A DNA stretch of 64,000 nucleotides from an uncultured Clostridia bacterium (GCA_944349375.1 CALVMV010000004.1:44178-108177); one strand, 5' to 3'. Shown: positions 3,969-53,100, counted from the stretch's first letter. The notes: generated from the letters alone by a model not told the origin. Numbers and translations are program-made.

Positions 3969-5546
3969 TTAAAATTTTTCAACTTCTTCATTATTTTCTA
4001 TAAAATTCTTTTTTTTTAACTCAATTTTTTTTAACCCTTCTTTATCAAGGTTATATACTTCATTACAAATTTCATTGATAAATTTTCTATCATGGGATAC
4101 GGTAATAATGACACCATTAAATTTTTTTAATACCCCTCTTATAATAGGATTAGATAATGGGCTTAAATTTCTAGTTGGCTCATCCAAAACTAAAACATTA
4201 TTTTTTTGAACTATTAATTTGGTTATTAAGATCTTAGCTTTTTGTCCTTCACTTAAATCAGATATTTTATGCTCCATTTCTTCTCTCGTAAATTTTAAGC
4301 ATCCTAACAATGTTCTAGGATTTAATTTTGAATTAGCCTCTTGTAATTCTTCAACTGGTGTTGCAGAATAATTTAAATTTTCACTATAATTTTGAGAAAA
4401 ATACCCTATTTTTAAACCACTTGTATTTTGTAAAACAGGCAAAATTGTTTTTAAAAATGTAGTTTTCCCGCAACCATTATTTCCAGTGATTGCAACTTTT
4501 TGTGGACCAAAAATTTTAAATTCTATATTTTGAGATAACTTTTTTCCACCTACTTTCAATTCTTTTATATTTACATCTATAACTTTCTTTTGATTTGGTA
4601 CTACAATATTTTTATCAACTATTAAATTAATAGCTTCCTCAACTTCAGGAATTTCCGTTAATTCTTCATCTTGTAATTTTTTTTCTTGAGCTTTTATATT
4701 TGCCATTTTTTTTGCAACTATGCGACCATTTGATGGATCCTTTTTAGATGCATTTAATGAATTTTCCACCTTTTGTTTTATTTGTCTTAATATTTCTTCT
4801 TGTTTAGCTTTCTCCCTTCTTTCGTTATAAGCTATTTGCGTTTGTTTCTCAATACCACGTCGTCGAGAGTCAATATATTCGTCATAGCTACATTTCGCTA
4901 AAGTAAACTTCGGTTTAGATTTTTTCATCAATTGTTCTATGTGTAATATTCTGTTTGCACAATTTTCAAGCAAAGTTTCATCATGAGAAATAAAAATAAT
5001 TGGCAACTCTGAACTTTTTATAAAATTTTCTAACCATTCTAAAGTATTTATATCTAAATCATTCGTAGGCTCATCTAAAAGTAAAACTGTTGGATTTTTA
5101 CATAATATTTTTACCATTTGCAATTTTACTTGCTCTCCACCAGAAAGATTTTTTATTAAAGTATTATCTTCGAGTATTTTTTTATCAAGCCCAAATTCTG
5201 TTAATTTTTTTTCTATCTTATCAAAATACTCATAGACCGCATAATCATCTTCTGAAGAGGGATTTTCTTTTAAAAAATAGTCTAAAATAGTAAACGCTCC
5301 CCAATTGTTAGATAGCTTTTGTTCCAAATATCCTAATATTTCACCTCTTGTGTCAATTGTGCCCTGCACATTACAATATGACGAAATAAGATCTTTATCA
5401 TAAATTGCCTTTAACAATGTTGACTTACCATTTCCCTCTTCTCCAATAATTGCAAGCCTATCTTCTTTATTTAATGAAAATGACAAATCTTCAATTAATT
5501 TCCTGCCCTTAATAGTTTCTATAGAAACATTTTGTAACTTTAGCAT
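3969..5546 (-). CDS. ABC-F family ATPase (two ABC cassettes, no transmembrane domain)
   Basis: Walker A GEEGNGKST and GNNGCGKTT, signatures LSGGEQ and LSEGQ, Walker B LLLDEPTNDLD and VLVLDEPTRNL. A charged K/E/Q-rich linker of about 100 aa joins the cassettes. The ATG abuts the stop of the upstream radical SAM gene (TAAATG). Confidence 0.85.
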   Translation of the reverse strand: MLKLQNVSIETIKGRKLIEDLSFSLNKEDRLAIIGEEGNGKSTLLKAIYDKDLISSYCNVQGTIDTRGEILGYLEQKLSNNWGAFTILDYFLKENPSSEDDYAVYEYFDKIEKKLTEFGLDKKILEDNTLIKNLSGGEQVKLQMVKILCKNPTVLLLDEPTNDLDINTLEWLENFIKSSELPIIFISHDETLLENCANRILHIEQLMKKSKPKFTLAKCSYDEYIDSRRRGIEKQTQIAYNERREKAKQEEILRQIKQKVENSLNASKKDPSNGRIVAKKMANIKAQEKKLQDEELTEIPEVEEAINLIVDKNIVVPNQKKVIDVNIKELKVGGKKLSQNIEFKIFGPQKVAITGNNGCGKTTFLKTILPVLQNTSGLKIGYFSQNYSENLNYSATPVEELQEANSKLNPRTLLGCLKFTREEMEHKISDLSEGQKAKILITKLIVQKNNVLVLDEPTRNLSPLSNPIIRGVLKKFNGVIITVSHDRKFINEICNEVYNLDKEGLKKIELKKKNFIENNEEVEKF

Positions 5547-6902
5547 TTACACCTCCAATTTTGATATTAATTGTTGGATTCTTTTTTTAATAATTTTTTT
5601 ACATTCATTATTTTTATAAATATTACGATCTATATTTTCAATTATATTTTTTCTAATACGAGGACACAGTCCTTGGCAATATTTTATATATTTACAAGAA
5701 AAACATTTTGAGTTATTTACATTCATTAAAGACATATTTTCAACAAAATCCAAGGTAATATCTGAATTGTCATAGGGGTCACAATTATTATTTAATCTTT
5801 CTTGAATAGTCCCAATTTTAAAATTTTCATCAAATACATTATTCCAACATCTATACAAATTGCCATTGCTATCTAAAACAATATCTTTTGTTAAACTTTC
5901 TGCTATACAAAATGTATTTAAATTTGAAACCATTAGATTTGCATTAACCAATTTTTGTTTGTAACAAATATCAAAAAGTTCTTCACGATATTTTTCATAT
6001 TCAAACAAATTAAAAGAATTTATCGAACCAAAAACTCTAGCTATATCAACAAATATGTATTGTCCAAAATATTTTTTTTCTAACAAATTTGTAATTTTTT
6101 CTAAAAATTGCTTTATACTTTGATAATTTTGTTTATCTACATTTAATCTAATTACAATTTTTATTTTATTTTCTGCACATTTATTAATATTATAAATTAT
6201 TTTATCAAATGTATTAATTTTACATTTATTTGTTCTTCGTGAATTATGGAACTCTTTTTCACCATCTATGGTAATTTGAATAAAATCACAATCTTCAAAC
6301 TGTAAATGCTTTATGAAATCTCCGTCAATTAAATAACCATTCGAAATAATATTAAAATGAAACTTTATATTCTTTTCAACGCATAAATTTTTAACTTTTT
6401 CATTAAATTTTATTATAAAATTTTTTTCTAAAGTTGGTTCTCCACCATAATAAACAATTTTTAAATCTTTAACATAATCTAAAGTAACTTTATCTATATA
6501 CTGGTATAAATATTCCGATGTTTTTATTAAATTTGAAGAACAATTTTCTTTTTTATTGAGATTTTCCCTTTCGAAACAATAAGGGCAGCAAAAGTTGCAT
6601 AAGTTTGTTATTGCAAAATCTATTTTTACACTTTCTTTTTCTGATGAGTATTTAGAAATATTATAAGTCAACTTATTTCTATTTTTTATTTCTTCATCAA
6701 AATTTGATTCAACTAAAAATTCTTGATCAATTAAAACAGCTATTTCATCTTCCGAAAATATTGCTATATCTTTGTTTTTTTTAAATAATATAATTTTTTT
6801 ATAACTTTCTAAATCTAAAACAATCAACGAACCATTATTTGTATTAAAGAGGAACTTTTTATTATTAATATTAAAAATCTCACAATAATTTGTTAATTCC
6901 AT
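5547..6902 (-). CDS. Radical SAM/SPASM-domain peptide maturase
   Basis: CNFCCPYC (CxxxCxxC) cluster plus C-terminal Cys-rich SPASM-like motifs (CFSCKYIKYCQGLCP, NECKK). Start set to the ATG at 6902 (MELTNYCEIF), which follows AGGAGTG. The longer track start at 6944 would run through a hairpin. Confidence 0.85.
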   Translation of the reverse strand: MELTNYCEIFNINNKKFLFNTNNGSLIVLDLESYKKIILFKKNKDIAIFSEDEIAVLIDQEFLVESNFDEEIKNRNKLTYNISKYSSEKESVKIDFAITNLCNFCCPYCFERENLNKKENCSSNLIKTSEYLYQYIDKVTLDYVKDLKIVYYGGEPTLEKNFIIKFNEKVKNLCVEKNIKFHFNIISNGYLIDGDFIKHLQFEDCDFIQITIDGEKEFHNSRRTNKCKINTFDKIIYNINKCAENKIKIVIRLNVDKQNYQSIKQFLEKITNLLEKKYFGQYIFVDIARVFGSINSFNLFEYEKYREELFDICYKQKLVNANLMVSNLNTFCIAESLTKDIVLDSNGNLYRCWNNVFDENFKIGTIQERLNNNCDPYDNSDITLDFVENMSLMNVNNSKCFSCKYIKYCQGLCPRIRKNIIENIDRNIYKNNECKKIIKKRIQQLISKLEV

Positions 6903-6921
6903 TTGCACTCCTATAAAATAA

Positions 6922-6946
6922 AGATGAGATAATATATATCTCATCT
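6922..6946 (-). promoter_or_regulatory. Intercistronic stem-loop between the precursor peptide and maturase genes
   Basis: Perfect 9-bp stem AGATGAGAT/ATCTCATCT with a 7-nt loop. On the transcribed strand it is followed by TTATTTTAT and then the maturase RBS. Confidence 0.4.
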
Positions 6947-6958
6947 AAATATCATGAC

Positions 6959-7051
6959 TTAACATCCACCATAATGAGAGCAAGGTCCACAAAGAAATTG
7001 TTTAGTAGATACTTCCTTCACTGATTTTTGTTTTTTTAAAACTACTTTCAT
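6959..7051 (-). CDS. Putative RiPP precursor peptide (30 aa): MKVVLKKQKSVKEVSTKQFLCGPCSHYGGC
   Basis: Not in the ORF track because it is too short. The ATG at 7051 is preceded by AGGAGGGAGAAA. A Lys-rich leader is followed by a C-terminal 10-residue core with 3 Cys. It lies directly upstream of the rSAM/SPASM gene. Confidence 0.6.
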   Translation of the reverse strand: MKVVLKKQKSVKEVSTKQFLCGPCSHYGGC

Positions 7052-7082
7052 TTTCTCCCTCCTTTATTAGAATTTTATCATA

Positions 7083-7664
7083 TTATATGTTATTTGTCAA
7101 CAAAAAAGATACAAGTTCTTTTTTTGTAATTTTTACATCCATATTTGACAAAATTAATTCTTTTAATATTTCTTTTTGGGTGACGTATAAATACTTAATA
7201 TATAACATTGCTGAATAATAGTAATCAATATTAAACTTAAAATATTTTTTTAATTTATTTAAAGGAATAATATTTATTTTGTTTGCTTTATCCTTTACTA
7301 TATTTCTTGCTAACAGTGTAGCTAATCCTTCAGATAACCATAAATCTATATTTTTATTAATATTATAAAGAATTGCATGTATTATCTCGTGATGCAATAT
7401 TTTACAAAATTCTAAATCAAAGTTTTTGAAAGAATCTTGATTTATGTATATATTGCCATCTTCCATAAACATAATCGCATAATTATTAAAATTTTCATCT
7501 AAACTCTTAATGAATTTTTTACGAGTTATTACAATTATTTTTATACTAATCTCTTTGTTAAAATTAATAATACACTTGATTTGTTTAATTGATAAATCAA
7601 GCAATTTTTTCGCTAATTCATATAACCTTTTGCTTTTATTTCCATTGACAATAATTTTATCCAT
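7083..7664 (-). CDS. Putative zinc metallopeptidase (HExxH...E gluzincin, peptidase-MA-like)
   Basis: HEIIH followed 15 residues later by the E of WLSEGLATLLA. It is the first gene of the operon, 31 nt upstream of the precursor ORF. Confidence 0.55.
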   Translation of the reverse strand: MDKIIVNGNKSKRLYELAKKLLDLSIKQIKCIINFNKEISIKIIVITRKKFIKSLDENFNNYAIMFMEDGNIYINQDSFKNFDLEFCKILHHEIIHAILYNINKNIDLWLSEGLATLLARNIVKDKANKINIIPLNKLKKYFKFNIDYYYSAMLYIKYLYVTQKEILKELILSNMDVKITKKELVSFLLTNNI

Positions 7665-7726
7665 ATTTCAGTCATTATAGCATACTTTGCTGAAATATAC
7701 AAAAATAAAAATAATAATTTATATCC

Positions 7727-7770
7727 TGGTGCACCTGAGAAGATTCGAACTTACGACAAACCCGTCTTAG
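7727..7770 (-). pseudogene. tRNA 3'-end-like fragment (T-arm, acceptor 3' strand, CCA), not a complete tRNA
   Basis: The minus strand reads ...GTAAGTTCGAATCTTCTCAGGTGCACCA. No matching 5' acceptor strand or anticodon stem could be folded from the adjoining sequence. Confidence 0.35.
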
Positions 7771-7818
7771 GCAGAAGAATTATCAAAAGCGTTCTCCCCT
7801 TATGAAAAAGTCTTTTAA

Positions 7819-8145
7819 TTAGGAGAAAAGCTCATCAAATTAAAAGATGAATATTCCAAGTCAGAATACAGCAAGGAAAAAGCTGATGAAATTAGTGATT
7901 TAGAAAAATTTATTGAACAAGAATGCTCAAAATTTGATCCCCAACTATTAATAGATGTGTCAAAATATAGAAAAGAATATTTTGTAAATAAAACAACTGA
8001 AGAGAAGTTATATAAAGATGGCGGTGTAACAATAAACATAACAAACGATATTGAAAATTCACCATATTGTCAAAGTGCCGATCTTATCAATTCTTCAGCT
8101 AATAAACTATTTTTAAAACAACTAGATGAAATTCTTTATAGTTAA
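7819..8145 (+). pseudogene. Open frame of 108 codons without an ATG/GTG/TTG until 7957; possible 5'-truncated gene remnant
   Basis: The frame is open from the TAA at 7816-7818 (LGEKLIKLKDEYSKSEYSKEKADE...). The only start candidate is the GTG at 7957. No family recognised. Confidence 0.3.
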
Positions 8146-8162
8146 ATATTAAAATTGATAAA

Positions 8163-8186
8163 AAAACGCGTTTGTTGACGCGTTTT
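8163..8186. terminator. Bidirectional intrinsic terminator
   Basis: AAAACGCGT (8163-8171) pairs with ACGCGTTTT (8178-8186) around a 6-nt loop. It lies immediately downstream of tilS and of the + strand frame. Confidence 0.6.
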
Positions 8187-9518
8187 TTATTTTTTTACTT
8201 CAATCATGTATGCTGTTGGCACATTATCAACTCTTGCTTTTTCAGAAATTTCAACTCCTGCTATCGCATACACTTCATTTCCATCTGCTAAAACTGGTAA
8301 GAGATTTCTTTGTCTAAGTGGTATTTTTTTGTCTATTAAATATGATTTAAGTTTCTTTGTTCCACCACCAAACTTTTCAAAAACATCTCCATCTTTTCTA
8401 AATCTCCAAATTGCTGTTTTAGGAACTTTTCTATAATCTAAGAATAGCACTCCATCTTTAGGTTCAAAATCTTTAACTCTTTTTGTTATAACTTTCCCAA
8501 ATCCCTCGACATCAAATTCGCCACACTTAAAAGGCTCGTTCAAAACCATTTCTTCTTTATTTTTGTTAGTAATAGAAATATAGTAGTACTCTTTAACTGC
8601 TGTAGCATTAAATGGCAAGGATACTTTTTTCCCATTCTCTAAGTTTTGTGCTAGATCCAAAATCATGTCAAAATGCTTTCTTTCAATATCCTTTGTTATA
8701 CCAATAGATTTGAATGCTTTAAAAAGTATTCTTGTTATAATTGGTCTATCATACAAAAAGTAACTTGTTGGTATTTTTACTTCATCGCCTTCAATTATAA
8801 TTGCATCATCATAAATGTTTTTGTTGATATATTCATCATCTTCACTTACAGCTTGCCCAAAAGATGCTATTGACTTTATAGCATTTGGCCACCTAGTCAA
8901 AACATTTTTCATAATAACATTTCTAACAAAATTTCGGTTATAAGTTATATCGACATTAGTTTCATCTTCTCTATAATCAAGGTTGTTTTCATCAAGATAT
9001 TGCAAAATTTCTTCTTTTGATGTTGTTAGCATAGGCCTTATGTAAACATTATCTCTTATAGGTTCCATTCCTTTTGCCCCTGCGACACCACTACCTCTAA
9101 AAATATGCATTAATATTGTTTCTGCCTGATCTTGCATATGATGAGCAAGTGCAATTTTGTCAACAACTCCCTTTTTTAATAATGTTTTGAACACGCCATA
9201 TCTGGCATCTCTTGCAGCAGTTTCAATACTTACATTTTTTTCTTTAGCTATTTTAGGTGCATCAACTCTAAACTTATAGAACCTAATCCCAAGTTCTTTT
9301 GCTTTTTCTTTTGCAAAATCAGCATCTATATAACTATTTTCTCTAATGCCATGGTCGATATGAATTGCAACAACTTCAATATCAAGTTTTTGCATATTAT
9401 TTGCTAAATAGTGTAAAAGAGCCATAGAATCACTACCACCGCTAAATCCTACGCCTATAACATCTCCTGCCGAAATCATATTTGTTTTTTGTATAAATTT
9501 TTCAATACTTTCAAGCAT
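8187..9518 (-). CDS. tilS: tRNA(Ile)-lysidine synthetase
   Basis: PP-loop motif SGGSDSMALL near the N-terminus. The 443-aa length and TilS-type C-terminal domain fit. Confidence 0.9.
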   Translation of the reverse strand: MLESIEKFIQKTNMISAGDVIGVGFSGGSDSMALLHYLANNMQKLDIEVVAIHIDHGIRENSYIDADFAKEKAKELGIRFYKFRVDAPKIAKEKNVSIETAARDARYGVFKTLLKKGVVDKIALAHHMQDQAETILMHIFRGSGVAGAKGMEPIRDNVYIRPMLTTSKEEILQYLDENNLDYREDETNVDITYNRNFVRNVIMKNVLTRWPNAIKSIASFGQAVSEDDEYINKNIYDDAIIIEGDEVKIPTSYFLYDRPIITRILFKAFKSIGITKDIERKHFDMILDLAQNLENGKKVSLPFNATAVKEYYYISITNKNKEEMVLNEPFKCGEFDVEGFGKVITKRVKDFEPKDGVLFLDYRKVPKTAIWRFRKDGDVFEKFGGGTKKLKSYLIDKKIPLRQRNLLPVLADGNEVYAIAGVEISEKARVDNVPTAYMIEVKK

Positions 9519-9646
9519 AATTATTTCCTGCCTTTTTTATTTGTTTTATTATTATACAATATAAAAATTTTATAGGCAATACTAATTTTAGAAAAATTTA
9601 TAATTTTTTTATAATTTTTAACATTTTTTCTTAATATTTTCTAGTT

Positions 9647-11923
9647 TTAAAAGATTTTGACTACAATACAAGTCATATCATCTACAGCATATCCATTATT
9701 ATTTGCCAATGCTCTGTCTATAATTGCTTGTGCGTATTCCTGTGGATTTGTGGTTTTAATGGTCAATAAAAAGTCTTTATAATCACTATCGCTTCCAAAA
9801 GCATCATTAACACCATCACTTGAAATAATGATAAAATCTTTTTCAGAAAGAACAACTTTTTTTATAAGTGGTTTCGCTTCTTGAATAACTCCTATAGGTA
9901 ATGCTCCGCTTTCTAAAATCTCGCAACCATCTTCTCTCCTTACAAATGAAGATGTTGCTCCCATTTTTACAAAATCAGCAAGTCCACTTTTTAAGTCAAC
10001 AACGCATATATCAATAGTAGAAAACATTTCGTCCTTTTCCAAATTTAAAAGTTTATTTACTGATGACAAAATAGTTTCATTGTCAAAGCCTGCTTTATAA
10101 AAATTCTCTACCAATCCAATCGCTGTTTCTGATTTTTCCCTTGCCTCGTTTCCGCTTCCCATTCCGTCACAAATCGCAAACATGAATTTTTCGCCGTCAA
10201 GTCTTTCAATGCTATGACAATCTCCAGATAATGAAGAACCTGATTTATTTTGTTGAGCTATACCAAATATACAATCAAATCTAGGGGCTGTCTTTAAATT
10301 TACTGTTGTCAAACCTGCTTTAACAGAAGGATAAATTTCATAAATAGACATTTTGTTTCCGCAAATTTTTGAAACGACACTTTGCAATTTGGTTTTTTCT
10401 ACATCTTCATCTCTAACGACAAGGGAAGTTACCATCGTTCTAGCATTTTTGTCATAAACTACTGCATCTGAACAGGCGATATTATTGAAAGCGAGTTCAT
10501 CTATCAGCTTATTCTCCTTGCTATTATCAAATGAAACAATTGGCTCTACTTCGTTTGCAAGTTCTTTCATTAGTCCTGCCATTCCAAATAATTGATCAGA
10601 AATTAAAAGTTTGCTAGTATCAACATTTCCAACTAGTTGTCTATAGTTTTTATATTGATTTGTCAAAGTGTTTATCTCACTTATTAACATATTTGCTCTT
10701 CCACATCTAGAAGATAGATAGCTCGGCAAGTCTAAAATTGTGATTTTTCCTTTTTCAAGAGCTATTGTAATCATTTCTTCAAAAACTTTTTTCGTATCAT
10801 TTGAAAAAGTTCTGTGGCAATGCTTTTCTTCTGGGCAATTTTTACAAATAGAATTACAGATTTCCCCATAAAGCATTTCTTTTACTTGCTCTGGGCTCAT
10901 TTCCGATTTAATTAATTTTTTAAACACACTATTCATTTCAAAAAAAACTTCAGACAAGTTTTCAAGCCTTCTATGTAAGATTTCTCTATTTCTATTAATC
11001 AAGTTTTTAACTGCTAGTTTTTGAGAACCACTAGAGAAAAGACAAGAAATTTCATCATAACATTTTTTAGGAATAAGATAAAATATCAAACTACCTATTA
11101 AAACGGGCAAAATCTCTATTATACCGAAGGAATAATAAAACTGGAAGTAGAACCCACATACCAACTCTGACAATACAAGAGCTATTAGTGAGAATATCCT
11201 TTGTTGCGTTTTGAAGATACCTGCACACATGGCCCAAATAATTAATGGAGCAAAATAAACTGGATTATTTGAACATACCGTGCTACCAAATGCAATCAAA
11301 GAAGCTATTAATAAAGAAGACTTAGCTGAGGATATGTAAACCGATGCAAGAATCATAAAACTAGCAAAAAGTTTTAGAAATGAAAAGTTATAAATATTAA
11401 AGTTATTTAGTCCCGAAGAAAATGCCGTAAGAATTATACACGAACAAATAATTTCAAAATTTGAAAATTTAAAGGCTGTCCCCCTTAATAGTAAAGGTTC
11501 GAAAAAAGAAATACAAATGAAACAAAATAAAAGTCCGGTGATTATATTAACAACGATTAATGCGGGATTAATTCCATTCAATGCCTGAAAACAAATTGTT
11601 GCTGTTTGGCTAATAACTGCACACACAAAGAGTTCCCACTTTTTCATACCTTTTTTACACATTACATGAATATAATACGGGAATATTAAAACAAAGATTG
11701 TAACTAAAGCACAAATCCCATTCACTACGCTAAAATTAACAACCATAGCACCTATCAAATAAGCAGGAGCTAATATCCATACCTTCTGATTTGCCCAAGC
11801 TAGTGCAAATAACATAGAGAATGCAAAAGGATATATTAATCCACCGATTGAAGCAAGATTTAATACATAAAATAAAATAATAAACCCTAAAAATTCAGAA
11901 AAATAAAAAAGTTTTGTTCTCAT
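9647..11923 (-). CDS. spoIIE: Stage II sporulation protein E (membrane-anchored PP2C phosphatase)
   Basis: A polytopic hydrophobic region of about 300 aa at the N-terminus, a central domain, and a C-terminal PP2C domain (ICDGMGSG, SSDGVNDAF, DDMTCIVV). The position next to tilS matches Bacillus. Confidence 0.85.
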   Translation of the reverse strand: MRTKLFYFSEFLGFIILFYVLNLASIGGLIYPFAFSMLFALAWANQKVWILAPAYLIGAMVVNFSVVNGICALVTIFVLIFPYYIHVMCKKGMKKWELFVCAVISQTATICFQALNGINPALIVVNIITGLLFCFICISFFEPLLLRGTAFKFSNFEIICSCIILTAFSSGLNNFNIYNFSFLKLFASFMILASVYISSAKSSLLIASLIAFGSTVCSNNPVYFAPLIIWAMCAGIFKTQQRIFSLIALVLSELVCGFYFQFYYSFGIIEILPVLIGSLIFYLIPKKCYDEISCLFSSGSQKLAVKNLINRNREILHRRLENLSEVFFEMNSVFKKLIKSEMSPEQVKEMLYGEICNSICKNCPEEKHCHRTFSNDTKKVFEEMITIALEKGKITILDLPSYLSSRCGRANMLISEINTLTNQYKNYRQLVGNVDTSKLLISDQLFGMAGLMKELANEVEPIVSFDNSKENKLIDELAFNNIACSDAVVYDKNARTMVTSLVVRDEDVEKTKLQSVVSKICGNKMSIYEIYPSVKAGLTTVNLKTAPRFDCIFGIAQQNKSGSSLSGDCHSIERLDGEKFMFAICDGMGSGNEAREKSETAIGLVENFYKAGFDNETILSSVNKLLNLEKDEMFSTIDICVVDLKSGLADFVKMGATSSFVRREDGCEILESGALPIGVIQEAKPLIKKVVLSEKDFIIISSDGVNDAFGSDSDYKDFLLTIKTTNPQEYAQAIIDRALANNNGYAVDDMTCIVVKIF

Positions 11924-12020
11924 AATTTCTCCACGAAATTATTATAAAAATATTAAAAAAAAGGGCATAGTCCTATTTTGTCGGACTTTGCCACCATTTT
12001 ACAAAAATTGTCAAAAAAGT

Positions 12021-12569
12021 TTATTTTCTCGAATCTAATATTTCGCAAATTTTATTTATAGTTTTTTCTAAAACAATGTTGTCTATAATATAATCATAAT
12101 CATTTTTAAATTTTCTTTCAAAAGGCGCTCTTGATAATCTTAAGGCAATATCTTCATCTTTGTCGCCTCTTAAAATCAATCTTCTTTTTAACTCATCATC
12201 TGGGACTTCTAAAAATATTGAAATAATTTTGTCTTTATCAAAATGGTTTCGTAATTTTTTATTGCCTTTCACATCTATATCTCTGATATAGTCATTAATT
12301 TCATCTTTTTCTATTTTTTCAATTTCTTCTTTTAATATTCCCCTATAATTTCCATGCACTAATTCATACTCAAATAATAAATTATTTTCTATTGCTTTCT
12401 TAAATTGTTGTGTAGTTATAAATTTATATGTTCCTCTTTCTTCTTCATTTTCTCTTGGTTGTCTATTGGTGACTGATGGAAAAATTTTTAAATTTTTTCT
12501 TTCTTTTAACAATCTATCAATTACAGTATTTTTCCCACTACCTGAAACTCCTGATATAACAATTAACAT
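12021..12569 (-). CDS. gmk: Guanylate kinase family protein
   Basis: P-loop GVSGSGKNT, TNRQPRENE (compare TTRxPRxGE), and YELVHGNYRG. Start set to the ATG at 12569 after AAGGAGAT. The longer track start would overlap cwlD. Confidence 0.6.
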   Translation of the reverse strand: MLIVISGVSGSGKNTVIDRLLKERKNLKIFPSVTNRQPRENEEERGTYKFITTQQFKKAIENNLLFEYELVHGNYRGILKEEIEKIEKDEINDYIRDIDVKGNKKLRNHFDKDKIISIFLEVPDDELKRRLILRGDKDEDIALRLSRAPFERKFKNDYDYIIDNIVLEKTINKICEILDSRK

Positions 12570-12624
12570 GAAAATCTCCTTAAAAAAGGATAACAAATTT
12601 TTAATAAAAAGTAAAATATTTAAA

Positions 12625-13314
12625 TTACATTTCAAAATAATTTATTACGCCTGCTAGAATACTGTAACAAAAATTTTTTCTATATTCTTCTGTCTGTAAA
12701 AGTTTTTCTTCTTCAGGATTTGACAAAAATCCACATTCTACTAAAATAGCCGGAATGTTTGAATAATTTAAAACAAAATAATCCCCAACTGTTACATAAT
12801 CTCTAGCGCTTTCAAAACTTTTACTTAAACTATTTTGAATGCTTTTTGCAAGATTAAAGCCCTGCTCTGAACCTTTTGCATAAAAAACCTGTGCACCTTC
12901 ACTAGAAGACAAAGGAAAAGAATTCATATGCAAACTTATCACTAAATCAGCATTGCTATTATTTATAATGTTTTTTCTTTTTTCCATTTCACTTTTTTTC
13001 TTATTAGAAGCACTTTCATCATAAAGCCCATCCATTGTGCTTCTTGTTAAAACAACATCAAACCCAAATTGCTCACAAGCTTCTTTTAGGCATAGTGCAT
13101 ATTGTAAATTTAATACACTTTCACTAATCCCTGTAGTTTTCCCAACAGCCCCTCCATCTCGACCACCATGCCCCGCGTCAATGACAATAGAGTATTCTGG
13201 TTTTGGTGATGCTGTCGCCTTAACTGCAAAGCAAGCCCCCACCACCGAACAAATCAAAATTATACTTACTAAAATAACACACAACGTCCGCTTTTTTATT
13301 GTTAAGAATTTCAT
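12625..13314 (-). CDS. cwlD: N-acetylmuramoyl-L-alanine amidase, CwlD-like (Amidase_3), membrane-anchored
   Basis: N-terminal hydrophobic anchor, VIDAGHGGRDGGAVG, LVISLHMNS, and LVECGFLSNPEE. See the finding on the chimeric 5' end. Confidence 0.8.
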   Translation of the reverse strand: MKFLTIKKRTLCVILVSIILICSVVGACFAVKATASPKPEYSIVIDAGHGGRDGGAVGKTTGISESVLNLQYALCLKEACEQFGFDVVLTRSTMDGLYDESASNKKKSEMEKRKNIINNSNADLVISLHMNSFPLSSSEGAQVFYAKGSEQGFNLAKSIQNSLSKSFESARDYVTVGDYFVLNYSNIPAILVECGFLSNPEEEKLLQTEEYRKNFCYSILAGVINYFEM

Positions 13315-13437
13315 ATTGTATTTTATTAAACAAAAATTTTTTATATAACAAAATTAAAAAAAGATGTCACAAAATATTGAAAACTCAAAATTTCAATGTT
13401 AATCTCTTTTTGTTTAAAAAATAAAAGGAGAATTAAT

Positions 13438-14175
13438 ATGATATATAACGAACAACTTGATTCGCTTTTTTCTAATACAGAAAGCACAACTGATTATGAA
13501 GAAGAAAAGCGAAAAAAGAAACAAAAACTTGTGAGGAATGAATTTGTAAAATGTGGAAAATATGGAATGCCGCTAATCAAGAAACAAAATATAGATTTAA
13601 ATAAGATTGAGTTATTAAGTTATTTAAAAACAAAAAATGATGATGAAGAAAACAAAAATAAAACAATTCATTTTTTCACTTATGATTGGAATTTTGAAGC
13701 AGTCTATGAAAAACCCGAACAATCACTTGAAAAACTAGACCAATATTATGCTTTGCTTACTCCTGAATTTAGCACATATAAGGATATGCCACTTGCTAGA
13801 CAAATAGATAGTGTTTTCAAAAATCGATGGTGCGGTGCTTTTTGGCAAAAACAAGGTATGCTTGTAATTCCAACAATTTCATGGGGTTCATATGATTGCT
13901 TTGAATTCTTTTGCGATGGTGTTGAAGAAGGTTCAGTTGTGGCGGTATCAACCTACACAAGAGAAGATAACAAAAAAGGTTTTATGGAAGGCTATGAAAT
14001 TATGATGGAAAAAATTAAGCCAAGTGCAATTATCTGCTATGGAACACCTTTTGATGAAATGAAAGGAAATATTAAAGCAATCGACCCATATAACCGAGAA
14101 GAACTTATCAAAAAAATTGGATTAAGTGAGTTTACTAGAAAATATTTTGCTGGCGAACTTTATCCGGAAATATAG
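13438..14175 (+). CDS. DUF4417-like protein
   Basis: Pattern HFFTYDWNFE...LLTPEFSTYKDMPLARQIDSVFKNRWCGAFWQKQGMLVIPTISWG is recalled as the DUF4417 signature. Start set to the ATG at 13438 after AAAGGAG. Confidence 0.6.
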   Translation: MIYNEQLDSLFSNTESTTDYEEEKRKKKQKLVRNEFVKCGKYGMPLIKKQNIDLNKIELLSYLKTKNDDEENKNKTIHFFTYDWNFEAVYEKPEQSLEKLDQYYALLTPEFSTYKDMPLARQIDSVFKNRWCGAFWQKQGMLVIPTISWGSYDCFEFFCDGVEEGSVVAVSTYTREDNKKGFMEGYEIMMEKIKPSAIICYGTPFDEMKGNIKAIDPYNREELIKKIGLSEFTRKYFAGELYPEI

Positions 14176-14184
14176 GAGCAAATT

Positions 14185-15003
14185 ATGGAAGATTTAAAAC
14201 TAACTATAAACATGCTCCCAAAAGGAGCTTGGAACAACGATTTCAGCAAAACGCTATCTAAAAAAGATTGGGATAAACTCCGCGAATTTGCACTTAAAAG
14301 AACAAATGGAAAGTGTGAAATATGCGGTTATGAAACAAGCGACCTTGATGTTCATGAAGAATGGGAATTTGATATTGAAAAGAAAACGCAAACTTTAAAA
14401 CAAATTATTGCGATTTGTTCAAAGTGCCACGGAGTTAAACATTTCAAAAACTCTGTTAGACTTGGCTATGGCGAAGAAGCACAAGAGCATTTTATGAACG
14501 TTAACAATGCTTCGGAAATGGAATTTGCAAGTCATCTCAACAAGTCATTGCTTGAATATAATGAAAGAAATTCAGTTTATCGCTGGAAGATAGTCGCAGA
14601 TTTAGAAAAATTTGGCGGAAACGGAATAGAAATAAAGCAAAACAATATTCCCCTAATAAAAAATCCGTATGAAAGTGTGGAGTGGGACAAACTGTCATTT
14701 GATGACATGAAAAATTTGTTTGAAATAAAAAGAAATGAAAACTTGATAGGCTCTCCGAAAATTGTTTCTATTGATGTTGACAATTATCAAGGCATTATTC
14801 AAATCAAAGCATTATTTGCTGACAGGATTGAATGGTATTTAGATGAGAAAAAAATAAAAACAAACTATAATACCGCTGGTCTATTCACAACTGAACTGAA
14901 AGTAAAAAACTTAATCGGCAAGAATATAAAATTCAAACTTACTGGCATAGGTGGAGAAACAATCTCAAAATACTTTGAAATTTTGCCACAGGAGGTGTTA
15001 TAA
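14185..15003 (+). CDS. HNH-type nuclease-like protein with an uncharacterised C-terminal domain
   Basis: CEICG...LDVHEEW...ICSKCHGVKH follows the CxxC / D-x-H / CxxCH..H arrangement of HNH zinc fingers. Confidence 0.5.
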   Translation: MEDLKLTINMLPKGAWNNDFSKTLSKKDWDKLREFALKRTNGKCEICGYETSDLDVHEEWEFDIEKKTQTLKQIIAICSKCHGVKHFKNSVRLGYGEEAQEHFMNVNNASEMEFASHLNKSLLEYNERNSVYRWKIVADLEKFGGNGIEIKQNNIPLIKNPYESVEWDKLSFDDMKNLFEIKRNENLIGSPKIVSIDVDNYQGIIQIKALFADRIEWYLDEKKIKTNYNTAGLFTTELKVKNLIGKNIKFKLTGIGGETISKYFEILPQEVL

Positions 15004-15299
15004 TGGGTATGTGTAAACCAAGTGGCGGAATCAGTAAGCAAATAGGAAGAGTAGGTGATCTAAAAACCACTGGAGAACCAAACACTAGAAAAGATTTATA
15101 TAACGAAGATGGTAAACTCATACAGCAAAGATGGTATGGTTCAGATGGAAACGCGATTTGGGACCGGGATTGGTCTCATGGAGGTGGAGAACACGAATGG
15201 CCACATGATCATAGTTGGGATTGGACTAATCCGCAACACCCAGATAGACCTGCATATGAAGACGAATATGGGAATAAAACAAATTCTAGTTATTGTTAA
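15003..15299 (+). CDS. Small His/Trp/Asp-rich protein with YD-like dipeptide repeats (possible orphan toxin module)
   Basis: Its start overlaps the upstream stop (TAATG). Features include LYNEDGKLIQQRWYGSDGNAIWDRDW and HEWPHDHSWDW. No signal peptide. Confidence 0.45.
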   Translation: MGMCKPSGGISKQIGRVGDLKTTGEPNTRKDLYNEDGKLIQQRWYGSDGNAIWDRDWSHGGGEHEWPHDHSWDWTNPQHPDRPAYEDEYGNKTNSSYC

Positions 15300-15310
15300 A
15301 AGGAGATATT

Positions 15311-15778
15311 ATGAAAAACAAAAGTATTTACGATGAAATTTTTGATAAACCATGCTCAGTTTGTGGCAAGATTATTAAAAAAGATATTTATGATCAAGGT
15401 TCCTGTCCTTATTGTAAATGGAAAAATAACCATTTTGCCGAGATAAATCCAAATAATGTGTTGTATCCCAACCTAATCTCACTAAATAAAGCAAGAAAAT
15501 TATATAACGAAGGCAAGCCTTTTGAGCCTAATCTAGACGAATTTATGGAAGCTTTGCACAATTATAGCGAAACGCAATTTGAATATAAAGGAGTTTACTA
15601 TGCTGTTGAACTTGTTTTTAATAATAACAGCGAACCAAAAATCAGTCTTTATAATTCTCAAACAAAAGAAACAACATTTTTCAACAATGATGAAGATTTT
15701 ATAAACAATGCTAAAATTGATGGTAAACTTTTAAAAGATATATGGGAAGAAACAACTGATAGATATTGGTTACAATAA
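15311..15778 (+). CDS. CPCC-type zinc-ribbon protein, paralog 1 (immunity-like)
   Basis: CSVCG...CPYCKW followed by the NLISLNKARKLY... domain shared with the next two genes. The ATG at 15311 follows AAGGAG. Confidence 0.6.
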   Translation: MKNKSIYDEIFDKPCSVCGKIIKKDIYDQGSCPYCKWKNNHFAEINPNNVLYPNLISLNKARKLYNEGKPFEPNLDEFMEALHNYSETQFEYKGVYYAVELVFNNNSEPKISLYNSQTKETTFFNNDEDFINNAKIDGKLLKDIWEETTDRYWLQ

Positions 15779-15788
15779 CAGGGTAAAA

Positions 15789-16244
15789 ATGAAAAATAAA
15801 AATATATATGATAAAATATTTGAAAAAAAATGCAATGTTTGTGGAAAAACTCTACTTGCTAGCAAAACAGGAAATGGGGAATGTCCTCATTGTGGCTGGT
15901 ATAACAATAGACTTGGAGAAATTAACGAGAATATGGTAATTTTCCCCAACTTAGTTTCACTAAACAAAGCAAAAAAATTATATAAAGAAAATAGGCTTAT
16001 AAAGCCTGACTTAAATGACTTTCTTGAAGCATTCGAGTTTTATGGCGAAACAGGATTTGAATATAAAAACCTAATGTTCTGTCTATTTAGACATGGCGAC
16101 AATGGAATTGAAATGGGTTGGGGACCAAACGATGATGAAGTTGCATATTTCAAAGACAAGGAAGATTTTATCAAAAACGCAAAGATAGACAATGAATATG
16201 TCCGAGATATTTGGAATAAAGTTGAAAATCCTTGCTATTTATAA
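15789..16244 (+). CDS. CPCC-type zinc-ribbon protein, paralog 2 (immunity-like)
   Basis: CNVCG...CPHCGW plus the shared C-terminal domain. The last 65 nt are nearly identical to the 3' end of paralog 3. Confidence 0.6.
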   Translation: MKNKNIYDKIFEKKCNVCGKTLLASKTGNGECPHCGWYNNRLGEINENMVIFPNLVSLNKAKKLYKENRLIKPDLNDFLEAFEFYGETGFEYKNLMFCLFRHGDNGIEMGWGPNDDEVAYFKDKEDFIKNAKIDNEYVRDIWNKVENPCYL

Positions 16245-16292
16245 AAACTAAAAATGTTTGTTTGTGCGGAAAAAATATGATATAATTTAATT

Positions 16293-17315
16293 ATGAAAAG
16301 AACAGTCAAAAATTTAAACAATATATATGAACCTGTATTTAAAAATGTTGATAAGATGACAAAATTCCTAAGCAAGAATTGTGTTGACCATGCATTAGAT
16401 TTTCATTATGGGCACAGAATCAAAATTGGCAATCAATCTACAAACGAATTATACCCAATTCCACTTTTTCGCTTTAAACTGAAAGGAATAAAAACAGAGA
16501 CTTTTTTTGATGTCTATACGAACAAAAACTATATTGGCTATATCAAACTTTATCCAAACAAAGAAGAGATTTTATCTCTTAATTTGGAAGTTTTTGCAAA
16601 TCTCAAATATCTTATATATGGTTATAATTATCAACAAGAACTTTATAACTCTGAAGATTTAAAAGAAACAAAAAACAATATCGAAAAATCAAAAGATACA
16701 AAATTTATTATCTATGCCGACTTTAAAAATCTTGAACAAATTTTTAGTGTAATAGAAAGTCTTACAGAAAAACCAACTCAAAGATTTTCAATGGCAAACT
16801 ATAAATGCAACTGCGGACATTATGTAACAATTGAATCATACAACGGCACTTGCCCAGTTTGTGGAAGGGACGGCCCATTTAAAAGAAAATACAAAACAAA
16901 ATGCCCTGTGTGTAAAGCAAATTGTTTAAAAGACCAATATGGAAATGGTGAGTGTGAAAACTGTGGTTGGAAATTGGATAAATACGCACATAAATTTAAA
17001 AACAGAGTTGTTTATACAAACCTAATCTCATTAAATAAAGCGAAAAAATTATATAAAGAAAATAAACCTATGAAACCCGATTTAGACGATTTTCTTGAAG
17101 CGTTTGAACATTATAGTGAAACAGGATTTGAATATAAAAATGTTGGTTTTTCCTTATTTAGAAATGGCGAGAATGGCATTGAATTTAGTTGGGGTCCTGA
17201 GCCATGTGGCACAATATATTTCAAAGATAAAGAAGACTTTATTCAAAACGCCAAGATAGACAATGAATATGTCCGAGATATTTGGGAGAAAGTTGAAAAT
17301 CCTTGCTATTTATAA
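16293..17315 (+). CDS. CPCC-type zinc-ribbon protein, paralog 3, with an extra N-terminal domain of about 190 aa and additional Cys pairs
   Basis: The C-terminal 140 aa align with paralogs 1 and 2 (CENCGW...NLISLNKAKKLYKENKP...IDNEYVRDIWEKVENPCYL). Confidence 0.6.
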   Translation: MKRTVKNLNNIYEPVFKNVDKMTKFLSKNCVDHALDFHYGHRIKIGNQSTNELYPIPLFRFKLKGIKTETFFDVYTNKNYIGYIKLYPNKEEILSLNLEVFANLKYLIYGYNYQQELYNSEDLKETKNNIEKSKDTKFIIYADFKNLEQIFSVIESLTEKPTQRFSMANYKCNCGHYVTIESYNGTCPVCGRDGPFKRKYKTKCPVCKANCLKDQYGNGECENCGWKLDKYAHKFKNRVVYTNLISLNKAKKLYKENKPMKPDLDDFLEAFEHYSETGFEYKNVGFSLFRNGENGIEFSWGPEPCGTIYFKDKEDFIQNAKIDNEYVRDIWEKVENPCYL

Positions 17316-17326
17316 AATAAAAAATT

Positions 17327-17355
17327 AAGCATATCAACCGATATGCTTTTTTTTA
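17327..17355 (+). terminator. Intrinsic terminator of the cargo operon
   Basis: AAGCATATC (17327-17335) pairs with GATATGCTT (17340-17348), followed by a T-run. Confidence 0.7.
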
Positions 17356-17399
17356 CACTTATAAAATATGTGTCTTTTTTCTATTAAAATTTTAAAAAC

Positions 17400-17576
17400 T
17401 TACTGTCCTAACTTGACATCTACTCCGCCGTACCCAGCGTCAATCACAATGGTATGCACCGCCTTCGGCGAACTTGTCGCTTTAACCACATAGCAAACAC
17501 CGACAATTAAACAGATTGCAACTAGAACAACCAAAAGAATGGCACAATGCGTCTTTTTTATTGTTAAGAATTTCAT
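17400..17576 (-). pseudogene. Displaced cwlD 5' fragment 1 (58 codons)
   Basis: Translation MKFLTIKKRHCAILLVVLVAICLIVGVCYVVKATSSPKAVHTIVIDAGYGGVDVKLGQ*. It parallels intact CwlD up to GG-x-D and then diverges into the junction string. The Zn-ligand His is replaced by Tyr. Confidence 0.7.
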
Positions 17577-18204: not shown

Positions 18205-18516
18205 TTATAACCATTCATATCCATATTCCAAAAATAAGTTCTCAAAATATTCCCCATCAGCTCTTGGTGGATAATATGTGATAATTTTACCATCTCTAGA
18301 AACCATCATAAATTCATTTGTACTTTCTCTATATCGATATATCGTTCCATCCTTAGTAGTAAATTTTCGAATATTAGAGTCCTTATCGTTAAAAAAATCA
18401 ACTGCTTTTTTAGAATATTTGTAGGGATAACCCTTTAACCCAAATTGTGTTGCATGTTTAACTTCATTTTCTGGCGATGTCCAATATTTAGCATATTCAC
18501 TCGGTGCTTTTTCCAT
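18205..18516 (-). CDS. Small hypothetical protein, possible orphan toxin C-terminal module
   Basis: 103 aa with no signal peptide, 12 nt upstream of the CPCC gene. It contains DGTIYRY...DGKIITYYPP motifs. No family named with confidence. Confidence 0.4.
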   Translation of the reverse strand: MEKAPSEYAKYWTSPENEVKHATQFGLKGYPYKYSKKAVDFFNDKDSNIRKFTTKDGTIYRYRESTNEFMMVSRDGKIITYYPPRADGEYFENLFLEYGYEWL

Positions 18517-50184: not shown

Positions 50185-53100
50185 ATGTCAAAGAAAATAA
50201 TTAAAAAATTATCAACTCTTGCTCTTGCAATTCTTAGTTTGGGAGTTGTTTTTTTGATGTTAGGATTGGTTAATTTAAATTCTAAGGCAGAAGAATCTTT
50301 ATCTGATAATTCTGTTAACTTTGATCAGTCAGAAGCTTGGGTTGATGAAATTGTATTAGGTGCGGCTTCAATTACAAATGAAAACCATTTTGGTAAAACT
50401 TGTATGGTTATTGATAGTGCTGAGGATTTAGCGCAGGTAGCATATGAAGTTTCGCAAGGGACAAACTCATCTTATACGAATGGTTATTTTTATTTGGCTC
50501 AGGATATTAATTTGCGAGGGAAGTTGTGGACTCCTATTGGAACGACAACCCATCCTTTTTCAGGGACTTTTTTCGGTAATGGATATAAAATTTCAAATGT
50601 TGTGATTTCTCAGGCATCCATAATTTCTGGCAACGATATTGGTTTGTTTGGTGCCGTTACTGGTTCTATTGTTGATTTAACTGTAGAAGGGGCGTTTGGT
50701 GTATCCTCATTAGTAGATTCTTCAACAAATAATATTGGACATATTGCAGGAAGTTTGCAAAGCTCGGGAGAAATTATAAACTGTTTTGATGAAATGATTG
50801 TTTCACTTCAAGATGGATTTAAATCTATTGGTAATACGGCTTCTTCGGCTAAAGTAATTTATCCTTCAAGCAAAAATGGTATCGAAGAAGGATTAACTAC
50901 CGTCGAAGATATGCAATCTAAAATATCTTTTAATGGAACTCCACAAACAGGATATTCAGTTTATTACAATACAAATGTAGCTGCAACTAGTGGCGATATA
51001 GAGGGAACTGGTGTAGGATTTTATCAAAATGGAAATTATATTTTTTCAGGAAATAAAGAAGAATCTCAACAAGTAAGAGTAGCTTTTGCAAATGTTTCTG
51101 AAGATACATATTCAAGTATTATTACTTTAAATAATCCTTTATATTTTTCTCAAACACCTTTACTTAGAGAATCTGCCGTTGGAAGCCAAGTTTATGTTTT
51201 AAGAACGGGTTACAAAGCAACATTTTCTGCGCCTTCATTAGAAAATAGTGGAATTGTAAACATTTCATGGAATCAAGCGACAGTCAATGTTTCTTACAAT
51301 TATGGCTATGGCTCAAGAACGGTGAATTTTGAAACTCCTTATGACAATCCTTGGACTAACGTAATTGCTACAAAAGAAATTGTAAGGCTTGGTTATCAAT
51401 CTAATACTTTATATAGTGAATCTTCAATGCAAACTCTTCTTAATACAACTGATAGAGCGAATTATGTTTCTTATTATGCAAAGAACGGAGATTGCGTTTA
51501 TATAAAATGGTCAGATCCAAAAAATTTGACAGGTAAATTATATGTTGGTGCAGACACTAACGAAGGTGGCTCTTTTAAAAATCCTTCTGCAAGCAATGCT
51601 TATTCAAATTTAAATGTTTCTGGTGCAGATGTTCTTAGTCAATCTTCAAATTATAGCGATCTTTCTAATATAATTGCTGGGCAAGATGTTGTTATCAATT
51701 TCTCATTAAATTCAGGTTATACATTCCAATTAGCAGGATTAGGAACAAACTTGCTTACAAAAAGTTCTTGGGACGGAACAGGGATTACTAATTTGACTAC
51801 TGGAGCTTATACATATTACCCTAATTCGACCGGAAAGGATAGCGACGGTCAAAGTTATATTATCGGTACAGATGGAGGATATTATGATGCATATACTCCT
51901 ATAGAAATTAAGGTGGAAAAATCAGATAGTAATTTCACTATTACAATTAAAAACATCGTTGATAACGGTGGAGAAATAGTTTTATTGTTCGGAAGAGAAC
52001 AGAAAGAAATATCTATTCAAGGAACAGGTTTGGATAGATTAAGCAGTGCCACTATAATTAATCACGAGGCGAGCCAAACTTCTTTAGATTGGGAAAGCAA
52101 AACAATAACTACCAAAATTGGGGAATCTTTTGATTTTGTTGTTTCATCAGTAGGGCAAGATTATTTTATCTTATCTAGATCGGTAAATGGTTTTGTTTGC
52201 GACAATATCATTGAAGAAGAAGAGACCCCTGTTGGAGAAAGTAAGTTTTATCAAAAAATTACATTTGAAATAAATGCCTTTTCTCCAGAACCAGCTGTAG
52301 AAGATTATTATATAACACTAAATATTAATAGATTATTAACTTATATAAAAGTTCAAATCGGTGAAGAAGGAAAATTTTTTGATAATGTTGCAGAAAACAG
52401 AAAGGCGACTGTTTCTGTTTCAAGTTCGGGAATAGAAAGTATGTCAACTAATAGTCAAGTTACATTACAGGTCCCTATGACAACAAACACGACTATTACT
52501 TTTAATGCAAATGGATTTTATTCTTTAGCTTCTGTGGACGGAGTAAGTGTTCCTTTTGAAAACAATGCTATATCTCAAACTTTTTCAAAATTTTCTAATG
52601 ATCCTTCAGCTCCAGCTTATATCATAACATTTAATCCAACAAAGAATTATTATAATTTAAACATAGTTTATATGATAGATGGGATAGAAGTTTCTAAAGA
52701 AATCGCTGAAAAATTTGTAAAATTTAATGGAAAAACTTCAAGCTTAGACTTTGAACAAACAGAAAATTACTCTTTAAAACTCACAGAATCAGCGAAAACA
52801 TGGTTAAAATATGATTTTTCTATCCAAGCTAGCGATTTAGGAAACAATTCAACAGGATATCAAGCTTCTGTATTAGAAGGGGCAAGTTCTGGTCTGTTAA
52901 ATGCTTCTTTCGATTCTGAAAACGCAACAAGTTCTTTTAATTACAAACCAGGAACTTTTAATTCAACTTTAACTATTAATTTGTCGAGAAAAGAAATTAA
53001 TGTAAACTTTAATAACTTAACACTAAATGATGATAAAACAATTCTTCCAGATTCTAGTTCTCTTTATGGGAGTATGACTTTAAAATATGATTATAACGGA

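Follow-up and report, generated by a model that had tools for sequence, protein, structure and literature searches.

In a 64,000-nt stretch of DNA from an uncultured Clostridia bacterium (GCA_944349375.1, CALVMV010000004.1:44178-108177; 'the window', WIN), we examined a gene for a 98-aa protein, here named tox98, and the three paralogous genes that follow it close to cwlD. The source is a spore-forming, Clostridium-like bacterium whose assembly of ~0.94 Mb (~29% G+C) is 80% complete. Our results very probably identify the genes as a toxin-immunity locus. This locus is likely the variable toxin-immunity module of a small mobile cassette (DUF4417-HNH-toxin-immunity) seated at the 5′ end of cwlD. 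As shown by homology, tox98 is a free-standing copy of an unnamed, His-rich, all-beta toxin domain, borne elsewhere on C-terminal tips. An earlier note on this DNA had claimed four open reading frames (ORFs), read as an orphan toxin tip followed by an immunity array, and all four are present. Their homologues form clusters of constant length (more than 100 of 90–107 aa for free-standing tox98, 81 for paralog 2, and 51 of 340–345 aa with 54–100% identity for the architecture of paralog 3), which shows that they are genes and not chance ORFs. Below, G, L and P designate genomes, loci and protein clusters from the sequence search, respectively.

The toxin assignment of tox98 comes from the proteins in which its domain is found. 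An exhaustive phmmer search with tox98, scanning 1.8 billion representatives, gave 493 matches (50% clustering). The core of the protein (residues ~13–83) constitutes the extreme C-terminus of the RHS proteins P0127, P0137, P0133 and P0174, past the cleavage motif ..NNP..Y.DPSG. The same type of domain ends P0120, behind a HINT domain, as well as a 360-aa protein with a peptidoglycan-binding-like N-terminus in G092 and a 187-aa protein in G086. Further carriers that end in it are a MuF/SPP1-gp7-like head protein from a phage contig (G281) and the 676-aa gp26, annotated as 'toxin', of Paenibacillus larvae Fern-type phages. In PHROGs, tox98 matched the C-terminus of phrog_18811 'toxin' (E = 1e-3). 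Residues R43, Y45, D56, H59 and H68 are kept in free-standing and carried copies, and N27, Q41, H64, H70 and W72 nearly always. In the free-standing family, the N-terminus MGMCKPSGG and the C-terminal ..N..YC are almost invariant; both are missing from the RHS-, HINT- and MuF-borne copies.

The idea of a detached toxin tip therefore stands in part: the core does end RHS, HINT, MuF and phage 'toxin' proteins, but tox98 belongs to a conserved free-standing family and is not a fragment ready for recombination. In particular, a resident full-length RHS gene, suggested as the recombination target, was not found: neither RHS repeat (PF05593) nor core (TIGR03696) was detected in the own genome and five relatives. 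Because the free-standing family is conserved, has its own invariant N-terminus and occurs in genomes where no RHS gene was found, tox98 is not a silent RHS-bound fragment. Two YD-like repeats had also been read in the protein. PF05593 is silent on it at E ≤ 10, but residues 29–52 do match RHS repeats of long proteins, namely in the multi-stretch matches P0123, P0230, P0236 and P0241.

The AlphaFold2 model of tox98 is all-beta with a predicted local distance difference test (pLDDT) value of 92.3. No neighbour was retrieved for it by Foldseek in the PDB (best E = 0.58); in BFVD it matched phage 'minor capsid' and further phage proteins (E = 1e-5 to 2e-3). Pfam and NCBIfam returned nothing significant for tox98, for the RHS-borne copies of the domain, for the small immunity proteins described below or for the N-terminal domain of paralog 3. 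Two activities were considered and discarded. A relation to restrictocin appeared as the only match in a profile search of PDB sequences, at E = 0.5, which is noise and receives no support from the fold search. A zincin HExxH reading of the HEWPH stretch fails since its Glu is not conserved in the family (E/T/K/D/Q). As previously noted, tox98 carries no secretion signal: no signal peptide, trafficking domain or hydrophobic N-terminus was observed.

Could the domain serve as accessory or pre-toxin, perhaps partnering Tox-WTIP, while its neighbour acts as chaperone or regulator in a non-lethal protein pair? In P0156, P0177 and P0226 it directly precedes the pore-forming Tox-WTIP hairpin, in P0137 and P0126 it is followed by hydrophobic tails, and no catalytic fold was recognised for tox98. 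However, it is the last domain in P0127, P0133, P0174 and P0120, in the G092, G086 and G281 proteins and in phage Fern, and has its own small downstream partner in the five loci where downstream DNA could be read. A conserved Asp/His/Arg cluster, hypervariability together with the partner and pseudogenised toxins beside an intact partner are all marks of a toxin. We consider the non-toxic explanation improbable. Toxicity of tox98, and its neutralisation, are what homology predicts.

The second line of evidence is the domain shared by the three paralogs. Alignment A3 bears out the claim of a common C-terminal domain, which spans ~85 aa and is here termed ImmB. No Pfam model covers it. Directly after the toxin tip in G092, G086, G192 (three tandem copies) and phage Fern lies a gene for a 73–84-aa protein with the pattern E.EF.Y.G..Y....GW.L......F......I.G..I..IW. 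Paralog 1 matched the 82-aa downstream protein of G086 by BLASTP (32% over 74 aa, E = 3e-7), and hhalign aligned the paralog C-domain with the small downstream protein over its full length (96.5% probability, E = 7.4e-10). The C-domain also matched phrog_3711 (77 positions, E = 3e-12) and gp27 of phage Fern (E = 2.6e-5). G192:C4 (L023, 10466–13182) provides an arrangement like a classical orphan array, with three tandem tox98-type tips (one intact of 184 aa, one fragment and one with a TAG stop), each followed by an ImmB gene of 81–84 aa. By homology, ImmB would be the cognate immunity domain of tox98-type tips, and paralog 1, by adjacency, the presumed cognate immunity protein of tox98.

The N-terminal half of the paralogs leads to a different toxin. 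A CPCC zinc ribbon had been proposed in each of the three; all four CPCC proteins of the window, these three and a fourth (cpcc4) further downstream, score above the Pfam gathering threshold of PF14206 Cys_rich_CPCC (24.5 bits), the paralogs with 28.9, 28.6 and 30.1 bits. C15, C18, C32, C35 and W37 are invariant in alignment A3. The AlphaFold2 model of paralog 2 (pLDDT 92.4) has 8ey4_I and 8ey3 as its sole real PDB neighbours, with template modelling (TM) scores of 0.84 (target-normalised; root-mean-square deviation 1.9 Å over 57 columns) and 0.78, respectively. These entries, 8EY4 chain I and 8EY3, are the contact-dependent growth inhibition (CDI) immunity protein of E. coli O32:H37, named 'Cys_rich_CPCC domain-containing protein' by the depositors. 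The relationship was also detected by sequence search against this CdiI (8ey3/8ey4_I), at E = 5e-4 with the paralog family and at E = 2.5e-9 with cpcc4.

The gene upstream of cpcc4 encodes a 103-aa protein, p103. A profile made of p103 and two relatives (A5) matched 8ey4_A ('PT-VENN domain-containing protein'), the toxin component of the 8EY4 complex, along all 88 aa of the chain (E = 5.8e-9). In the unrelated Firmicute G301, a Sec-signal protein ending in a p103-type domain is followed by an 84-aa CPCC-only protein. The pairing of CPCC with an 8EY4_A-type toxin is thus seen for cpcc4/p103 and in G301; paralogs 1–3 follow tox98 instead. We distinguish p103 + CPCC as one toxin-immunity type and tox98 + ImmB as another, paralogs 1–3 joining the immunity domains of both. 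It is rather more probable than its contrary that they are two-domain immunity proteins, and the CPCC half would then be active against p103-type toxins. The proposal of an immunity array behind a toxin is well supported in this respect, the C-domain being homologous to small proteins downstream of toxin tips and CPCC to a solved CdiI. The view of a ribbon attached to one common domain needs amendment: ribbon and shared domain are real, but they are two different domains of immunity type. Paralog 3 carries, as claimed, an extra N-terminal region with Cys pairs. Its residues 1–196 (16293–16880) comprise an N-domain of ~170 aa and a C..C/C..C ribbon (~171–196), with no Pfam match. A literature search returned nothing on CPCC in connection with immunity and polymorphic toxins, nothing on Cys_rich_CPCC itself beyond a mention of PF14206 in an unrelated paper, nor an accessible description of 8EY3/8EY4.

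We then turn to the surroundings of the module. Island loci were examined in different species and metagenomes, 11 in all, and each has the gene of a CPCC-ImmB protein behind the toxin gene. In most of them the pair travels with a DUF4417 gene and an HNH gene, here the backbone, usually beside cwlD; in L008 the order is permuted to toxin-immunity-DUF4417-HNH. Comparison with two genomes of the same genus, G566 (L042) and G543 (L041, G543:C7:22000-38000), delimited the exchanged segment. DNA identity is 50–70% in the body of cwlD, climbs to 90–97% in its 5′ ~65 nt (13250–13314) and is 85–100% from the cwlD 5′ end across the intergenic region and through the DUF4417 and HNH genes. It then falls to 45–65% no more than 30 nt past the tox98 start, with the break at 15003–15030. 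The near-identity of backbone and cwlD start, set against diverged cwlD bodies, implies that the cassette moved between species recently together with a replacement cwlD start. At the protein level, the window shares with G566, G543 and L055 93–95% identity for DUF4417 and 90–93% for HNH, compared to 56–59% for the toxin and 44–71% for the adjacent immunity protein. Distances correlate between toxin and immunity with r = 0.59, and between toxin and backbone with r = 0.36–0.39 (11 loci, which are not independent).

The left junction of the exchanged segment consists of the end of the HNH gene with the ribosome-binding site (RBS) GGAGGTG and the first codons of tox98. It is shared by 11 loci in nearly identical form, and G543 has a duplicate of it before its second toxin-immunity pair. 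Since MGMCKPSGG is conserved through synonymous changes, the peptide itself must also be under constraint.

On the right side, exchange involves the immunity genes. The DNA at 17021–17400, covering the ImmB half of paralog 3 and the region downstream as far as a cwlD remnant, is ~100% identical to G566. Residues 249–340 of paralog 3 differ in a single residue (99% identity) from the sole immunity protein that G566 has, and the breakpoint falls within the conserved linker NLISLNKAKKLY joining CPCC to ImmB. The toxin allele of G566 is 57% identical to tox98 of the window, and the ImmB of paralog 3 agrees with the immunity that is cognate to the G566/L055 toxin allele. This 99% match to the immunity of a diverged allele indicates that paralog 3 is an orphan immunity directed at a foreign allele that is common. 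As had been reported, paralogs 2 and 3 agree in their last 65 nt at all but 2 positions. Of the residues identical between the two proteins, 19 of 20 use the same codon in the last 22 codons, compared to 40 of 68 elsewhere (~4e-4, a binomial estimate made post hoc). The recent 3′ recombination deduced from this similarity fits the codon data; we regard it as one symptom of a wider modular recombination. Furthermore, the toxin gene is broken next to an intact immunity gene in G506 (TAA stop), in copy A of G543 (frameshift) and in G192 (TAG stop and fragment).

The cassette context raises the question of whether the small protein and the zinc-ribbon proteins are instead DNA-mobility machinery, as cofactors of the HNH/DUF4417 nucleases. 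The HNH stop codon overlaps the ATG of tox98 as TAATG, which would couple their translation, and the four genes travel together. Moreover, CPCC is fused to DUF4417 in two independent architectures: DUF4417-CPCC-ImmB of 394 aa in G449 (L045, 8340–9524) and CPCC-DUF4417 of 365 aa in G543 (L041, 9921–11018). Nevertheless, homologues of the two small proteins and of the two immunity domains occur in genuine toxin-immunity contexts devoid of DUF4417/HNH, the toxin-immunity genes diverge far faster than the nucleases, and the toxin-immunity pair persists after loss of DUF4417 and HNH in G493 and L057. A role in mobility is thus very improbable. In L057 (5537–6001), the HNH protein is reduced to its C-terminal 154 residues, encoded by an intact ORF (77% identity) immediately ahead of the toxin gene. 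Retention of this domain beside the toxin and the CPCC-DUF4417 fusions suggest a physical link between the toxin-immunity module and the backbone proteins.

The features of the island are listed in Table 1. The operon runs divergently from the 5′ end of cwlD, and the 272-aa backbone protein combines a phage-type HNH endonuclease domain at its N-terminus with a C-terminal domain of ~150 aa without assigned family. Downstream of the operon, an older, decayed cassette (p103 then cpcc4, minus strand) is bracketed by two displaced cwlD 5′ fragments, and all 4 CPCC genes of the own genome lie within the island. Similarly, in L041 of G543 (4810–13130) three nested cassettes are accompanied by three displaced cwlD 5′ fragments. 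One of these is a complete p103-type cassette (p103, CPCC-DUF4417 fusion, HNH); the tox98-type cassette includes two toxin-immunity pairs, one toxin being frameshifted. Tox98-type and p103-type cassettes are therefore nested both in the window and in G543. The distribution is patchy: within the genus 3 of 5 further genomes, in the order 9 of 201 sampled genomes (own genome counted), and in the phylum sample 4 of 400 others.

Table 1. Features of the cwlD island in the window (positions counted from the first nucleotide of the window)
Feature	Position	Strand	Evidence
cwlD, intact (spore-cortex N-acetylmuramoyl-L-alanine amidase)	12625..13314	-	PF01520 E 9e-47, TIGR02883 E 2e-53
DUF4417 protein, backbone gene 1	13396..14175	+	PF14386 E 3e-51; phrog_940 'nuclease' E 2e-51
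HNH protein, 272 aa, backbone gene 2	14185..15003	+	phrog_5200 HNH endonuclease E 1e-27; IscB-HNH NF040563 E 1.6e-5
Conserved left junction: last ~45 nt of HNH gene (with RBS) and first 27 nt of tox98 (MGMCKPSGG)	14958..15029	+	
tox98, 98-aa free-standing toxin-domain protein (by homology)	15003..15299	+	homology search, AlphaFold2 model, phrog_18811
Paralog 1, 155 aa: CPCC (14-67), ImmB (~74-148)	15311..15778	+	PF14206 28.9 bits; phrog_6332, phrog_3711 E 3e-12
Paralog 2, 151 aa: CPCC, ImmB; read as orphan immunity	15789..16244	+	PF14206 28.6 bits; Foldseek 8ey4_I
Paralog 3, 340 aa: N-domain ~170 aa, extra zinc ribbon (~171-196), CPCC (203-256), ImmB (263-336)	16293..17315	+	PF14206 30.1 bits
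Terminator-like hairpin and T-run, operon end	17327..17348	+	sequence
Displaced cwlD 5′ fragment, 58 codons; right end of younger cassette	17400..17576	-	BLASTP to cwlD 58% over 53 aa; repeats D4, D5, D7
cpcc4, fourth CPCC protein, 143 aa	17761..18192	-	PF14206 38.9 bits; phmmer to 8ey3/8ey4_I E 2.5e-9
p103, 103-aa toxin-domain protein (by homology)	18205..18516	-	profile match to 8ey4_A E 5.8e-9; C-terminus of phrog_15528
Second displaced cwlD 5′ fragment, 60 codons	18644..18826	-	ORF, repeats, BLASTP

Some further searches concerned the region as a whole. PADLOC defence-system models matched none of the eight island proteins. A promoter-like TTGAAA-18-TATAAT (14975–15004) was rejected as promoter of tox98, since its -10 box overlaps the start codon and cannot serve the gene; promoter-like sites in the region are no commoner than in shuffled sequences. 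Elsewhere in the window, a giant ORF of 4426 aa (50185–63465) gave a marginal sole Pfam match (Flg_new_2, 24.4 bits).

How might such a module work? We propose that the toxin acts in the cytoplasm on an intracellular target, a location suggested by the zinc ribbon of the immunity proteins and their lack of a signal peptide. Through ImmB, paralog 1 would bind and neutralise the resident tox98, its CPCC domain guarding against the p103-type toxin of competing cassettes inserting at this site. As orphan immunities, left by or gained through cassette exchange, paralogs 2 and 3 would confer protection against further alleles of the toxin present among sister species. The exchange may take place at a conserved junction on either side: on the left the MGMCKPSGG codons, on the right the linker and the 3′ end of the immunity genes. 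In this way the module could function as an addiction and exclusion device: the cell cannot lose the cassette, and cassettes with other alleles are resisted. We tentatively favour this role over intercellular killing, as searches of the own genome (80% complete) and of sister genomes that are 99–100% complete, genomes of ~0.9 Mb, yielded neither RHS repeat/core nor the type VII genes WXG100 and YukC, and as the toxin has no export signal.

The competing explanation is that of an intercellular weapon, the 98-aa toxin being released or delivered to neighbours by an unrecognised route and the paralogs protecting against self and non-self alleles, in the manner of Rhs, CDI and MuF systems. Possible routes would be MGMCKPSGG as an export or loading tag, the HNH C-domain or DUF4417 as carrier, or lysis of the mother cell. 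Several observations agree with it. The domain family is otherwise carried by exported or injected proteins, the N-terminal peptide of the toxin is maintained at the protein level with synonymous variation, and the HNH C-domain stays beside the toxin where the rest of the backbone is lost. In addition, the orphan immunity is intact and fits exactly a foreign allele that is common (P0043, 90 member sequences). It is at odds, however, with the lack of signal peptide and trafficking domain, with the missing RHS, WXG100 and YukC genes in the genomes just cited and with the nature of the toxin itself, a 98-aa all-beta domain without evident way across a target membrane. We regard delivery to other cells as a possible but doubtful role.

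A number of points weigh against our interpretation as a whole. Intact orphan immunity genes are better explained by toxins arriving from other cells than by addiction, and the own genome is only 80% complete. The toxin-immunity correlation lies only moderately above that between toxin and backbone, and the loci compared are not independent. The CPCC of the fusions may be a mere structural or docking module, as it is twice fused to DUF4417. With respect to tox98 itself, the domain may be accessory rather than the killing part where it precedes Tox-WTIP (P0156, P0177, P0226), and its model, although confident, has no PDB neighbour.

Taken together, these results allow a broader proposal, which we put forward with some reserve. 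Homing-type DUF4417 + HNH cassettes targeting one cwlD codon region might use free-standing polymorphic-toxin domains as swappable cargo, with fused immunities covering both rival toxin families and the MGMCKPSGG head marking an undescribed mechanism of delivery, processing or docking. Two families outside Pfam and NCBIfam are named here, a widespread toxin tip (493 representatives) and its predicted cognate immunity domain (phrog_3711). Both gain a testable pairing, and CPCC gains a second, fused context beyond the solved CdiI. In the searchable literature we found no description of the tox98 family, the ImmB family or the cassette, and the papers on DUF4417 do not treat the cassette. In gut Clostridia with ~1-Mb genomes, polymorphic-toxin modules would work without a recognisable secretion system, being carried and exchanged on a nuclease-driven cassette. 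If the two-domain reading is true, a natural single protein combines protection against two unrelated toxins, and selfish cassettes compete for one chromosomal site through toxins.

Several known systems resemble the locus in part. The closest for its CPCC component is the CdiA-CT/CdiI pair of E. coli O32:H37 (8EY4; CdiI alone, 8EY3), with which it shares the homology of CPCC to CdiI and of p103 to the toxin chain, and the order toxin then immunity. In contrast to that pair, the window has neither CdiA/CdiB two-partner secretion nor a VENN junction, its toxins are free-standing, and the CPCC of paralogs 1–3 is fused to a second, unrelated immunity domain and placed behind a different toxin, tox98.

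Like type II toxin-antitoxin modules, the locus is predicted to pair a small cytoplasmic toxin with an adjacent neutralising protein on a mobile element. Here, unlike in those modules, the toxin comes first, the partners belong to polymorphic-toxin families and there is no recognised repressor domain, Pfam and NCBIfam having detected no DNA-binding domain in the paralogs. The acquired interbacterial defence islands of Bacteroidales are tandem immunity genes without toxins, which match the toxins of other strains. The array of the window differs from these in lying behind a resident toxin within a nuclease-bearing cassette, and in its two immunity domains per protein. As for Tox-WTIP (PF15654), the tox98-type domain adjoins it in three long proteins, and the start of the model overlaps the WDW..P.R tail. 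The window protein lacks the two membrane helices, however; its tail is hydrophilic and the Tox-WTIP model gave no match to tox98 at E ≤ 10.

The MuF polymorphic toxins of temperate phages (Jamet et al. 2017, PMC5576092) are close in domain content: a tox98-type domain ends both the MuF/gp7-like protein of G281 and gp26 of Fern, where the ImmB-type gp27 follows, and the DUF4417 and HNH proteins of the window are phage-type families. Yet the island has no capsid or packaging genes and its toxin is not fused to a virion protein. The general framework is that of Rhs/CDI polymorphic toxin loci with orphan toxin-immunity modules (Zhang, Aravind et al. 2012, PMC3482391). As to a secretion or delivery apparatus, searches for RHS repeat/core, WXG100 and YukC were negative in the own and sister genomes. 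The toxin domain occurs at the C-terminus of multidomain carriers in its family (RHS, HINT, MuF, peptidoglycan-binding and Sec-signal), the window copy being without trafficking part. Immunity lies directly downstream, and a conserved upstream part switches sharply to variable toxin and immunity genes, with tandem displaced or orphan immunities, as in Rhs/CDI loci. Unlike in these, what is conserved before the junction is an HNH gene of its own instead of the delivery region of the toxin, the orphans of the window are immunity genes only, without toxin fragments, and the unit is a ~4-kb cassette targeting cwlD.

The locus thus belongs to a known kind, that of polymorphic toxin-immunity modules with orphan immunities, MuF phage toxins and the CdiA-CT/CdiI pair of 8EY4. 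What sets it apart, on our reading, is a free-standing toxin with a conserved head, a separate HNH gene as upstream partner, the two-domain immunity fusion and the small cassette at cwlD.

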